Positions 45,563 to 64,000 of a stretch of DNA of 64,000 bases are shown here, piece by piece. The notes under the pieces are model-generated. The model made no database searches. It worked only from the letters and a program-made list of their open reading frames with translations, and had not been told where the DNA came from. Both the position numbers and the translations under genes were made by a program. This DNA is from Escherichia coli. Lineage in GTDB: Bacteria; Pseudomonadota; Gammaproteobacteria; Enterobacterales; Enterobacteriaceae. The stretch lies in the NCBI RefSeq assembly GCF_016026235.1, contig NZ_CP065613.1; one strand, given 5' to 3'. The stretch's first letter is position 1. The number at the start of each line of letters is the position of its first letter.

Positions 45563-45866
45563 CCCTTTGATTATCAAGGATTAATTAAATTCATTCCTGG
45601 CAGGAAAATGGCTTAACATTTGTTAGACTTATGGTTGTCGGCTTCATAGGGAGAATAACATGAGCATTATTAAAGAATTTCGCGAATTTGCGATGCGCGG
45701 GAACGTGGTGGATTTGGCGGTGGGTGTCATTATCGGTGCGGCATTCGGGAAGATTGTATCTTCACTGGTTGCCGATATCATCATGCCACCTCTGGGCTTA
45801 TTAATTGGCGGGATCGACTTTAAACAGTTTGCTGTCACGCTACGCGATGCGCAGGGGGATATCCCC

Positions 45867-47149
45867 TGAGGGATCCCCAGAAAATTTAGTAAACCATTAT
45901 CATATTGGTATACCGTTGCTGTAGAACTTTCAGCCCTGCGTCAAGTGACAGTGTGTTTAGTATGAGTGGAGAATGTCGAATCACATTCTCCGCCAGTTTT
46001 AATAACGAGATGACTCGCCTGTGCTTCACTGTATTTGCCTGATATTTATGATGTATCCCTTTGTTTTCCAGGCTGAAACCGCTTAACCACATAATGATAC
46101 TGGCTAATGTTGCGATCAGACTCAATACCGTGACCCGCCCAGATGAATGACTGGCACCAAACCGTAGTCCAAATCCCCAGCGAGGATTTTTTTCATCCCT
46201 GAAATTTTGCTCAATTTGCATTCTACGGCTGTATAATTTCATTACCTGTTTTGGCGAGAACTCAGTACTGTTTGTGAAAATAAACCATGGTGATTTCCCG
46301 GCAGTACGAGCTTTAGCCGTCACCGATGGTCTGGTTGCTCTTTCCTTCGAGCGTTTAAATCTACGACCTTTAGGCTTACTTTTATAAAGATAAAAATGCC
46401 CTTCATGTTGTGCATTTTTATCTCGACCCAGCAGGCCTTCACCTAAATAAATTGCTGTCGTTGATGCTTTTGTGCCTGAGTCCGACACCTTTTCCCAGCC
46501 ATTACCAACATTGTAATAATGATTGCCCAGTACCCGGCAAATATAGGTCCAGCCACGGGAGCGGAGCTGTTGGAACCATCGCCCCTGAAAACCGGCATCT
46601 GTAATAACAATGACATCAGTCCCGGGGGAAAAGCACTCAGCAAGCGATTCCAGAAAACGCTCATGTACATCTGCATTCGCTGTCTGTGATGATGGAACGA
46701 CACAACTCATCAACGGTAAAGAACGCCCGTCACATGCCAGGCTTGCCCGCAAAAGCTGAAAACGAGAGGCATGATAAGCACTCCAGTCAATGAGTATCAC
46801 AACACGAGACATTCCCCGCGTAATCTTTTGGGTAATTCGCTGAAAAATGGTGGAAACCTCATTTTGCAAATGTCGATTCCCCAACAGTCGATCCACCCGC
46901 TTTATTTTGTTTTTAACTGATGCCGTACCGGTTAAATGACGCCCGATACTGGTAAGTGTGAGGGAAGCGCCATTTATTACAGCATTAGTTGCGTCAATCA
47001 GTGATTTTTGACGGTAAAGATGCAAAGGGGCCAGTATGTTGTTAAGGAAATTTTGGCATAATGAACGTGCAGGCATAGTGGTGATCTCCTTGAAATTGTT
47101 AGCACAATCAATTAGATCACATCTCACTATGCCTGTCTTGTTTTCTGGG
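45867..47149 (-). mobile_element. IS4-family (IS10-like) insertion sequence, about 1283 bp, with terminal inverted repeats and a 9-10 bp target-site duplication
   Basis: Left end CTGAGGGATCCCCAGAAAA versus reverse complement of right end CTGAGGAATCCCCAGAAAA (18/19 match); flanking direct repeat GGGATATCCC at 45857-45866 and 47150-47159; single transposase ORF inside. Confidence 0.88.
45886..47076 (-). CDS. IS4-family DDE transposase
   Basis: 396 aa from [10 protein letters not shown] with [25 protein letters not shown] and [15 protein letters not shown] (Y-2-R-3-E-6-K) motifs resembling the IS10 transposase but clearly diverged. Confidence 0.88.
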
Positions 47150-47370
47150 GATTCCTCAGGGGATATCCCTGCTGTTGTGATGCATTACGGTGTCTTCATT
47201 CAAAACGTCTTTGATTTTCTGATTGTGGCCTTTGCCATCTTTATGGCGATTAAGCTAATCAACAAACTGAATCGGAAAAAAGAAGAACCAGCAGCCGCAC
47301 CAGCACCAACTAAAGAAGAAGTATTACTGACAGAAATTCGTGATTTGCTGAAAGAGCAGAATAACCGCTC

Positions 47371-47589
47371 TTAACAAGCGCCTGAAAGCAGAAGACCAGT
47401 GGTAAAAAAGTGATTTACTTTCTTGCCACTGGCCTCCCAGTTCCCCCGATTGCCATGTTTTCCTTTTCGCATGTAACTACCTTTCCCTTTCTTATTTTTC
47501 TCTACGCGCTGTCGGAATAAGGGATCATGTAGTAATGCTTCTATCGCATTATCCTTTATCTGCCCTTTAGTATGCTGATATCGGCTCAT
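47371..47589 (-). CDS. arfA: Alternative ribosome-rescue factor A (YhdL)
   Basis: 72 aa [72 protein letters not shown]; 3' end overlaps the mscL stop. Confidence 0.92.
47384..47424 (-). promoter_or_regulatory. Stem-loop in the 3' part of the arfA ORF (candidate RNase III processing hairpin)
   Basis: Inverted repeat ccagtgg ... ccactgg flanking an A/T-rich loop inside the last ~15 codons; arfA mRNA is known to be processed to a non-stop transcript. Confidence 0.45.
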
Positions 47590-59482: not shown

Positions 59483-61878
<2,396 letters not shown>

Positions 61879-61898
61879 TCAATCGCTCAATGACCTGA

Positions 61899-62382
<484 letters not shown>

Positions 62383-62384
62383 CG

Positions 62385-62418
62385 CGCATTATACGCAAAT
62401 CTGAGCCTGACGCAAGCA
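62385..62418 (-). promoter_or_regulatory. S10 operon promoter
   Basis: On the minus strand cTTGCGTcaggctcagatttgcgTATAATgcgcggg (-35 TTGCGT, 17 nt spacer, -10 TATAAT). Confidence 0.65.
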
Positions 62419-62588
62419 TCGGGTAGAAATTAATCGCAACGCGCAGATTGCGAGCTGTATTCCACGAAATTTGTAAGGTTGTGAAGATAGCGTTTTTCAC
62501 CGGAACCAGGTTAACAAATCAGCGATTTCTCTGTTGCTGAGCATCCGGAGTTATTCGATGGTGATACTCCAATTACAGAGGATGTTTT

Positions 62589-63056
62589 ATGGACGCTACC
62601 CTTCCCTTTCTGATTTTGTACGCTTGTTTATCTGTCCTACTTTTTTTATGGGATGCAAAGCATGGCTTGTTACCTGACAGATTTACCTGCCCGTTACTCT
62701 GGTCAGGTCTTTTGTTCTCTCAGGTTTGTAATCCTGACGGTTTAGCCGATGCGTTATGGGGGGCGATTATTGGTTACGGCACATTCGCTGTCATTTACTG
62801 GGGGTATCGCATACTGCGTCATAAAGAAGGATTAGGCTATGGTGATGTGAAGTTTCTCGCCGCCCTTGGTGCCTGGCATACCTGGACCTTCTTGCCACGA
62901 CTGGTTTTCCTTGCTGCCTCATTCGCTTGCGGAGCCGTAGTTGTTGGTCTGCTCATGAGAGGAAAAGAGTCATTAAAAAACCCGCTGCCGTTTGGGCCAT
63001 TTCTGGCGGCTGCGGGTTTCGTTGTAGGTTGGGATAGTTTGCTGGCAGGCCGTTAA
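62589..63056 (+). CDS. hopD: HopD/GspO-like type IV prepilin (leader) peptidase, peptidase-domain-only protein
   Basis: 155 aa polytopic membrane protein with the two aspartate motifs of A24 prepilin peptidases (LLPDRF and [16 protein letters not shown]) and C-terminal [11 protein letters not shown]; in-frame stop 9 codons upstream of the ATG; no other gsp genes adjacent. Confidence 0.7.
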
Positions 63057-63529
63057 TCTTTAACTTTTATTTGTGATTGCAGGTAATTTTGTAAACCGAT
63101 TTTACCGATGAGATCCAGCTCAGTTTCGAGCCAGTCAATATGACCTTCTTCATCGGCAAGGATCTCGATCATCATATCACGGCTAACATAGTCATGAACG
63201 CTGTCGGCATACGCGATAGCCTCACGGAGATCCTTCGCGCCTTCCAGTTCTAATCGCAGGTCGGATTGCAGCATCTCCTCGACATCTTCACCAATCCCCA
63301 GTTTGCCTAAATCCTGTAAGTTGGGGATTCCTTCTAAAAACAAAATACGCTCGATATATTTATCAGCGTGTTTCATCTCATCGATGGATTCATGGTATTC
63401 GACGTCATTGAGACGCATCAGGCCCCAGTTTTTAAACATCCGGGCATGGAGAAAATACTGATTGATTGCGACAAGCTCATTTCCCAATAGTTTATTGAGA
63501 TAATTTATGATTTTAACATCACCTTTCAT
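63053..63529 (-). CDS. bfr: Bacterioferritin
   Basis: 158 aa [37 protein letters not shown]; ferroxidase-centre residues present. Confidence 0.97.
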
Positions 63530-63601
63530 TTTATAGTCCCTCCGCTTCCACTATTAGAGCGTAGATGGGGCTAGCGGGATGTCAAAAAATAAGCGTGGTC
63601 T

Positions 63602-63796
63602 TCAGGCAATCTCTTTAAATTCTGGCATCTGCATCAACTCGTCCTGCATCACTTCGCGCGCGGCGCGAATGCACTTACCGCATTGATTTCCCACAGGAAT
63701 AAACTTACGCAATTGTTGGAAAGATTGCGGATGAAACTGACGGACTGCCTGGCGAATTTTTTTGTCACTTACACCATTACACAAACAAACGTACAT
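63602..63796 (-). CDS. bfd: Bacterioferritin-associated [2Fe-2S] ferredoxin
   Basis: 64 aa MYVCLCNGVSDKKIRQAV...CGKC; four-Cys motif. Confidence 0.95.
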   Translation of the reverse strand: MYVCLCNGVSDKKIRQAVRQFHPQSFQQLRKFIPVGNQCGKCIRAAREVMQDELMQMPEFKEIA

Positions 63797-63831
63797 GATT
63801 GCTCCCGTTCAAATTCTGCGCAAAGTGTAAA

Positions 63832-63852
63832 TGAGAATGGTTATGATTACAA
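63832..63852 (-). promoter_or_regulatory. Candidate Fur box in the bfd promoter region
   Basis: atgagaatggttatgattaca resembles the GATAATGATAATCATTATC Fur consensus, about 40-60 bp upstream of the bfd start; bfd is known to be Fur-repressed. Confidence 0.4.
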
Positions 63853-63926
63853 TAGCACAGTTTTATTTGCGCCATAGTTCAGCGAGCAAAATTACGACTA
63901 AATATTTCGAGCTCAAATTACGGGCA

Positions 63927-63955
63927 GCAAAAAGGGCGCCGAAGCGCCCTTTTCA
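63927..63955 (-). terminator. Intrinsic terminator downstream of tufA
   Basis: On the minus strand aaagggcgcttcggcgcccttttt hairpin with T-tract, 25 nt after the tufA stop. Confidence 0.7.
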
Positions 63956-63978
63956 ATTCAAAACTAATTAACGTGTAA

Positions 63979-64000
63979 TTAGCCCAGAACTTTAGCAACA
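63979..64000 (-). CDS. tufA: Elongation factor Tu, extreme 3' end only (gene continues beyond the window)
   Basis: Reverse complement of the last 22 nt reads ...V-A-K-V-L-G-stop, the EF-Tu C-terminus; assigned as tufA from the bfr/bfd context. Confidence 0.6.

Follow-up and report, generated by a model that had tools for sequence, protein, structure and literature searches.

At its right-hand end the window (the whole 64,000-nucleotide stretch of Escherichia coli DNA under study) carries one of two versions of the interval between tufA and rpsJ, and we hold with high confidence that these two versions segregate as single blocks, one of 16.6 kb and one short. The account that we regard as probable overall is that the window has the native short spacer of the Salmonella type between the str and S10 operons, and that the long block is an imported alternative to it. 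More narrowly, we lean towards reading the K-12 block with T2SS-alpha and chiA as a 16.6-kb foreign replacement that has its own bacterioferritin genes and was exchanged as a unit via its flanks, the window being ancestral. This is a strain polymorphism that is common and has been described before, and no peculiarity of the window strain. A preliminary description of this DNA had remarked on the absence of chiA and gsp; that observation was confirmed, and its interpretation was supported in substance with the qualifications given below.

Block structure and break points relative to K-12

At the left of the final 2.2 kb of the window rplC lies beside rpsJ, the latter 100% identical to K-12 rpsJ, and RefSeq annotation of identical sequence names the genes from there on as rpsJ, 'prepilin peptidase', bfr, bfd and tuf (Table 1). 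The 155-aa prepilin peptidase, hereafter HopD, is the sole gene between rpsJ and bfr. Annotation of K-12 gives the order rpsJ-gspB-gspA-gspC..O-bfr-bfd-chiA-tuf; the preliminary description was right to recall chiA between bfd and tufA in K-12, and right that the gsp cluster (gspA-M) is absent between rpsJ and bfr in the window. The convergent hopD and bfr overlap by 4 bp (63053-63056), their stop codons sharing the palindrome TTAA, which leaves no room for a terminator; in K-12 the ends of gspO and bfr lie 28 bp apart.

Table 1. Coordinates, strands and basis of the features in the final 2.2 kb of the window
Feature	Position	Strand	Basis
rpsJ (ribosomal protein S10), opening gene of the S10 operon and conserved flank on the left	61899..62210	-	ORF and RefSeq annotation of identical sequence
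S10 leader and S10 promoter -10 hexamer (TATAAT = 62393-62388); last K-12-identical stretch before the haplotypes diverge	62211..62394	-	ungapped comparison and blastn end point
S10 promoter -35 hexamer TTGCGT	62410..62415	-	ACGCAAGC kept in register in both haplotypes
Short haplotype segment, 1,532 bp	62395..63926		blastn break points
hopD, orphan 155-aa prepilin peptidase, A24 domain only	62589..63056	+	position and orientation as gspO
bfr, bacterioferritin, short-haplotype allele	63053..63529	-	ORF and RefSeq annotation of identical sequence
bfd, bacterioferritin-associated ferredoxin, short-haplotype allele, 64 aa	63602..63796	-	ORF and RefSeq annotation of identical sequence
Putative promoter of bfd, TTGTAA-17 nt-TACACT; the Fur-box-like site (63851-63833) overlaps it	63824..63852	-	consensus and conservation
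tufA 3' UTR with str-operon intrinsic terminator (hairpin ~63954-63929); K-12 identity resumes here	63927..63978	-	fold and compensatory changes
tufA 3' end, stop codon TAA 63979-63981, C-terminus ...VAKVLG	63979..64000	-	sequence and annotation of matching genomes

Blastn and side-by-side comparison show complete (100%) identity with K-12 as far as position 62394 of the window and 99.9% identity from 63927 onwards; the window has 1,532 bp between the two positions where K-12 has 16,638 bp of gspBA-gspC..O-bfr-bfd-chiA (L001:20596-37233). The left break (62394/62395) falls inside the S10 promoter, whose -10 and -35 hexamers are common to both haplotypes and whose 16-nt spacer and all upstream sequence differ, while the right break (63926/63927) coincides with the start of the tufA terminator region. 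The S10 leader, which we take to be 172 nt long, fits the stretch tabulated for it. Only bfr-bfd aligns with K-12 between the break points, at 77-79% nucleotide identity (bfr, 90% aa and about 82% nt identity to the K-12 allele; bfd, 88% aa and about 77% nt), and window Bfr shares 94-98% aa identity with the Bfr of Citrobacter, Phytobacter, Raoultella and Enterobacter. The K-12 T2SS-alpha locus and the window thus occupy the same interval with flanks that agree to the base, with homologous bfr-bfd and a peptidase gene in the same places, but gspA-M and chiA are absent from the window and the spacer and upstream part of the S10 promoter differ. Given such sharp boundaries and nothing in common between them other than a diverged bfr-bfd, the short form is not the K-12 type with two deletions.

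The bfd-tufA spacer and the orphan peptidase

As had been described, bfd adjoins tufA with nothing like a chitinase between them. The spacer, put earlier at about 180 bp, measures 182 bp (63797-63978) and holds no ORF of the kind of chiA (GH18 with CBM5/12, 897 aa), and its two proposed elements, the tufA terminator and a Fur-box-like site, were borne out by folding, consensus matching and conservation across genera. Shortly after the tufA stop comes a GC-rich hairpin with a U-run, the form of a rho-independent terminator: an 11-bp stem with a UUCG loop followed by UUUUU (~63929-63954, minus strand), which begins 25 nt past the stop and folds at -18.5 kcal/mol (z = -2.4). We aligned the spacers of 11 short-type Enterobacteriaceae genomes that have bfd beside tufA (3 Escherichia, 2 Citrobacter, Pluralibacter, 1 Enterobacter, 3 Kluyvera and Silvania), revealing compensatory changes in the terminator stem (GGGCAC/GTGCCC in Kluyvera, GGACGC/GCGTCC in an Enterobacter) and two conserved blocks, namely the hairpin and a nearly invariant ~55 nt just upstream of bfd, separated by ~75 unconserved nt.

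Within the spacer, the Fur-box-like site TGTAATCATAACCATTCTC (63851-63833) matches 14 of 19 positions of the 19-bp Fur consensus, with additional overlapping 13/19 matches, and a score of 14/19 is reached by only 2 of the ~128,000 positions in the window. The match overlaps putative promoter hexamers of bfd; TTGTAA-17 nt-TACACT (hexamers 8/12 to consensus) is a plausible sigma-70 promoter, and the overlap suggests that Fur may repress it. A promoter and terminator scan called neither element, the bfd promoter scoring 8/12 against a threshold of 9 and the terminator probably being missed through A/U pairs that lengthen the stem into the U-run, and we therefore relied on folding and cross-genus conservation instead. 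An Rfam search of 61800-64000 (E <= 0.1) returned no family.

For the peptidase, we found a match to Pfam PF01478 at 80 bits (cut-off 26.5) over profile positions 2-102 of 104, and 41% identity to K-12 GspO (225 aa) over GspO residues 80-215, with no detectable DNA similarity. Residues D22 and D86 line up with the two conserved aspartate motifs in GspO (the LLPD region and GYGD-K), and HopD is a predicted A24 peptidase with both catalytic aspartates. It is not a full-length GspO: at 155 aa it lacks the first ~80 residues, the N-terminal N-methyltransferase domain is absent, the protein starts at the A24 domain with in-frame stops upstream, and no relic of a GspO N-terminus or of gspM was found upstream of hopD. 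Maximal ORFs of GspO-like peptidases run to 254-285 aa at 4 of the 5 loci outside E. coli that bear gsp and ChiA, and to 254-277 aa at six further gsp-bearing loci.

The closest likeness of HopD is to the Salmonella 'leader peptidase HopD', also 155 aa, at 67-68% identity over 96-97% of its length, with identity dropping as phylogenetic distance grows (Salmonella 67-68%, Citrobacter 60-66%, Lelliottia/Enterobacter 55-59%). The 90% cluster of window HopD includes proteins named Escherichia marmotae and unclassified Escherichia. A further three clusters resembling HopD, at 83-92% identity, were set aside as evidence of other species, two coming from error-rich assemblies with fragmented ribosomal genes and the third being a variant within E. 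coli that shares 99.8% identity with the window. We infer that hopD is a relic of a far older loss of a gsp cluster. An orphan 'GspO' has been noted before in strains W and H10407, where it is no substitute for PppA in SslE secretion; in W, deleting pppA abolishes the secretion of SslE although this gene is present (DeCanio et al. 2013, PMC3707838).

Distribution in E. coli and other genera

In 5,426 complete E. coli genomes, the short arrangement (rpsJ-hopD-bfr-bfd-tufA) is contiguous in 2,254 (42%), and long-block sequence at >=95% identity occurs in 3,170, so that the two classes sum to 5,424 of 5,426. At least 80% of the long block lies in one place in 3,062 genomes, and the bfd-chiA-tufA segment is present in 3,146; the long K-12 type thus amounts to about 3,150 genomes (58%), of which at most about a hundred show secondary damage, for example a BL21 derivative with a partial chiA. 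With a junction common to thousands of complete genomes, we rejected an assembly artefact as the source of the short form. The preliminary description had left room for chiA and gsp homologues elsewhere in the genome; at megablast sensitivity, genomes of the window's type carry no chiA or T2SS-alpha DNA elsewhere, the long block matching the short-type genomes sampled through bfr-bfd only (about 78%). The K-12 chiA region likewise matches short-type genomes only over the 52-nt tufA terminator, as does the bfd-chiA-tufA segment in sampled genomes without it.

The correlated presence and absence of chiA and gsp that had been proposed proved tight, both in the 5,426 genomes and across genera. The co-occurrence is almost perfect in E. 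coli because both lie on one alternative 16.6-kb block; what did not stand is its reading as two linked losses, in place of which we see one block polymorphism that includes the diverged bfr-bfd and the peptidase. A record labelled E. coli DH5alpha (NZ_CM135829.1, 4.83 Mb) has the short haplotype, since its sole match to the K-12 chiA region is the 52-nt terminator; a K-12 derivative ought to carry chiA, and the label or the assembly is doubtful.

We evaluated the genomes closest to the window for type II secretion elsewhere. The closest complete genome, FDAARGOS_943, is 100% identical over window positions 1-25000 and 99.8-99.97% over the remainder, and T2SS-beta genes from pppA to gspG were seen in the 50 kb examined. 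Strain 600468, identical to the window over the 2.2 kb, has an intact sslE-pppA-gspS-beta-gspC-M-beta set ~340 kb away. With T2SS-beta in its closest genomes, the window strain lacks T2SS-alpha and not necessarily all type II secretion.

These genomes also brought some separate observations. In FDAARGOS_943 the substrate gene sslE, first in the T2SS-beta operon, is split by a ~34 kb Mu-like prophage (NZ_CP065615.1 4493430-4532388), and this strain may functionally be without any type II secretion substrate. An IS5-family element of ~914 bp with a frameshifted transposase lies between its dprA and smg genes (L087 24006-24919) and is absent at the corresponding place in the window (~40087). The window itself has mscL split by an IS4-like element (45660-47374; mscL fragments 45660-45869 and ~47150-47374) with a 413-aa transposase ORF (45886-47127, minus strand) annotated as ISEc60 in the near-identical FDAARGOS_943; given the interrupted gene, the large mechanosensitive channel is probably absent from the window strain.

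For other genera, a contig scan with Bfr gave 80 Enterobacterales loci, E. coli, E. albertii, E. fergusonii and Salmonella not being among them. The order tufA-bfd-bfr-hopD-rpsJ is widespread in this set (Citrobacter, Kluyvera, Pluralibacter, Silvania, Enterobacter, Buttiauxella and others), and the peptidase gene too is missing at the locus in the more distant Pantoea, Erwinia and Xenorhabdus. In Erwinia typographi (L056 1049-3681), bfd and bfr lie ~2.4 kb apart, unlike all other loci examined.

Among these loci the slot between tufA and bfd is occupied only where gsp or a full-length GspO-like peptidase is present. A K-12-like ChiA fills it in two Trabulsiella species, an Enterobacter MAG, Kosakonia oryziphila and a Superficieibacter MAG, and a different GH18 chitinase does so in Yokenella, Rahnella perminowiae and, more weakly, Enterobacter sichuanensis. 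The coordinates of these other chitinases are L036 516-3182 (Yokenella regensburgei), L066 18-2336 (R. perminowiae) and L022 237-1751 (E. sichuanensis); the Yokenella and Rahnella proteins match PF00704 strongly, the former also having beta/gamma-crystallin-like repeats. The slot seems to gather chitinases wherever gsp is adjacent. None of the gsp-less loci with tufA in view (at least 15) has anything in the slot. The converse fails, in that Rahnella bonaserana and R. victoriana carry gsp yet have bfd adjoining tufA; several Citrobacter and Chimaeribacter contigs stop where tufA would begin. A slot filled only alongside gsp, and gsp sometimes without a slot gene, imply that the cargo depends on the machine and not the reverse.

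The closest relative outside E. coli that we found for the long block is the colinear tufA-chiA-bfd-bfr-gspO-gsp locus of MAG UBA5654, which appears to be a Superficieibacter. Its block shares only 66-73% nt identity with the E. coli long block and has no relationship to the window's short block, and we rejected it as the donor on that identity, regarding it as a relative and not a recent source; no close donor of the long block came to light among the loci examined. Over tufA and fusA, E. coli and this MAG are 93.9% identical, and the high identity starts at the exact break-point base of E. coli.

Direction of change and published accounts of the locus

We assessed the native state by gene order, divergence and phylogeny. 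The Escherichia outgroup sample comprised two genomes, one of E. marmotae type and one unclassified Escherichia (E. albertii and E. fergusonii not included), and in both the gene order is that of the window. Identity to the window in the E. marmotae-type locus (L091) is 85.3% for hopD, 90.6% for bfr and 93.8% for bfd, next to 92.7% for tusB and 85.5% for tusC; the unclassified Escherichia locus (L093) gives 95.5%, 93.7% and 96.4%, next to 94.1% and 94.4%. The short segment hence diverges like the neighbouring non-ribosomal tusB and tusC (85-94% and 94-96% for the two genomes, respectively).

A neighbour-joining tree of bfd plus bfr (657 nt, 200 bootstraps) placed the three Escherichia short alleles in one monophyletic group in 100% of replicates, adjoining Citrobacter (85-87% identity), with the E. 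coli short allele 94.4% identical to the unclassified Escherichia locus and 91.5% to the E. marmotae-type locus. The long allele of E. coli, which shares 79.3% identity with the short one, falls outside the Escherichia and Citrobacter clade in 99.5% of bootstraps and pairs with UBA5654 in 97%. Protein clusters at 90% identity likewise differ, the short-type Bfd cluster including Salmonella, Citrobacter, Lelliottia, Atlantibacter and Klebsiella, and the long-type cluster naming only E. coli and one Superficieibacter.

The closest known counterpart is the tufA-bfd-bfr-hopD-rpsJ interval of Salmonella enterica, which has the same three genes in the same order and orientation as the window, with bfd beside tufA, and whose Bfd falls into one 90% cluster with window Bfd. 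According to Brandis, Cao and Hughes 2019 (PMC6735719), the str-S10 insert of Salmonella consists of bfd, bfr and hopD and nothing else. The window has this insert, bfd-bfr being co-directional with tufA, and the layout recurs in at least 15 gsp-less Enterobacterales loci; the short form is one of two alternative blocks in E. coli, whereas in Salmonella it is the fixed state. Shared with other Escherichia, Salmonella and Citrobacter, and diverged as species are, the short block most likely represents the native state kept by the window strain, and we have moderate confidence that it was vertically inherited within Escherichia. What had been described as missing is absent here, but the implied direction is probably wrong, as the short form looks native.

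In the mechanism that we propose, tufA transcription would end at the intrinsic terminator, followed after ~75 unconserved bases by a promoter of sigma-70 type that the Fur-box-like site overlaps; this promoter would drive bfd-bfr, hopD converges on bfr, and the S10 promoter comes next. In E. coli, chiA and T2SS-alpha are found only on the 16.6-kb version, with its own ~21-23% diverged bfr-bfd and full gspO. This version would have entered E. coli by horizontal transfer through recombination in the flanks, its ends at the S10 promoter and the tufA terminator being places where genus-conserved sequence may permit homologous recombination.

Three other histories were weighed against this one. 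That the window descends from a K-12-like ancestor through two recent deletions, one of chiA and one from rpsJ into gspO that left the 3' part of gspO, is in essence how the locus of E. coli W has been described (Archer et al. 2011, PMC3032704), and the 155-aa peptidase does align with the C-terminal two thirds of GspO and occupies its place. Yet the peptidase has only 41% protein identity to GspO and no detectable DNA similarity, the bfr-bfd genes between the supposed deletions differ by 21-23%, the spacers are unalignable, neither the 5' part of gspO nor gspM has left a relic upstream of hopD, and the same short block recurs at species-level divergence in other Escherichia, Salmonella and Citrobacter. 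We give this history next to no credence, and regard a recent two-deletion event as refuted by the divergence data. The reverse direction, in which the long block is ancestral in E. coli and the short one was imported into B1 and E from another Escherichia or a related genus through the flanks, is unlikely and has more to recommend it. The long block forms two sub-lineages in E. coli that are ~97% identical, and this divergence of about 3% is typical of deep E. coli lineages; the flanks would allow exchange either way. We take its phylogroups to be A, B2 and D/F, strains that we recognise as B2 or A carrying the long block and W (B1) and O157:H7 (E) the short. The long block is old in E. coli, and by the species tree alone could be ancestral. 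The short alleles, however, are not close to any sampled foreign species, their best matches (94.4% and 91.5%) showing flank-like divergence, and against an ancestral long block stand both the position of its bfr-bfd outside the Escherichia and Citrobacter clade and a Bfd cluster named from nothing but E. coli and one Superficieibacter.

We consider very improbable an ancient balanced polymorphism that predates the split from Citrobacter and Salmonella and is maintained by different niches, with chitinase-mediated adhesion set against the cost of a secretion system. It would suit the intermediate frequencies (42% and 58%), the coexistence of both states within Citrobacter, Enterobacter and Kosakonia, and the association of gsp and chiA with mastitis isolates and with fitness in the mouse mammary gland (PMC11390585), but it asks both blocks to survive several speciations. 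Moreover, Citrobacter with or without gsp has similar, Citrobacter-type bfd-bfr, unlike E. coli, and this likeness regardless of gsp speaks for histories that were separate and against a single old polymorphism. Replacement of a native short block in E. coli by an imported long one remains our preferred reading.

Much of the pattern itself was already known. The E. coli K-12 T2SS-alpha locus (gspAB, gspC-O) with chiA/yheB was reportedly described by Francetic and colleagues in 2000. E. coli W, which matches the 2.2 kb of the window at 99.9%, is without gspA-O between rpsJ and bfr, a state called a gspO-rpsJ deletion; no B1 strain has gsp between rpsJ and bfr, and no T2SS-secreted chitinase is known from W (Archer et al. 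2011, PMC3032704). The papers on W and B1 place T2SS-beta elsewhere (PMC3032704; PMC3707838), and gspA-M with the chitinase was found to act as one co-occurring accessory module (Hall et al. 2021). The absence of T2SS-alpha and chitinase in W and B1 and the co-occurrence of gsp and chiA are thus not new; in the literature searched we did not find the block-replacement reading or the direction of change stated. The divergence data here do not fit the deletion from the K-12 form given in the W papers, and block replacement with its direction refines that published description. One further report ties gsp, chiA, bfr and bfd to mastitis isolates and fitness, with identical strain proportions (Olson et al. 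2024, PMC11390585, Tables 2-3); two diverged alleles (77-79% identical) counted as separate genes would most simply explain the bfr and bfd signal.

Like 42% of complete E. coli genomes, the window strain is of the type in which ChiA and T2SS-alpha are never made. In annotation, the 155-aa peptidase should be named HopD and not a truncated GspO, and the locus should not be called deleted. The S10 promoters of the two haplotypes, alike in their hexamers and different in spacer and upstream sequence, are a natural variant that can be tested for an effect on expression. In pan-genome studies, bfr and bfd alleles ~21-23% apart travel with gsp and chiA and can pose as 'accessory genes'. If the replacement reading is true, both the published 'gspO-rpsJ deletion' and the pan-genome hits on bfr and bfd would need revising.
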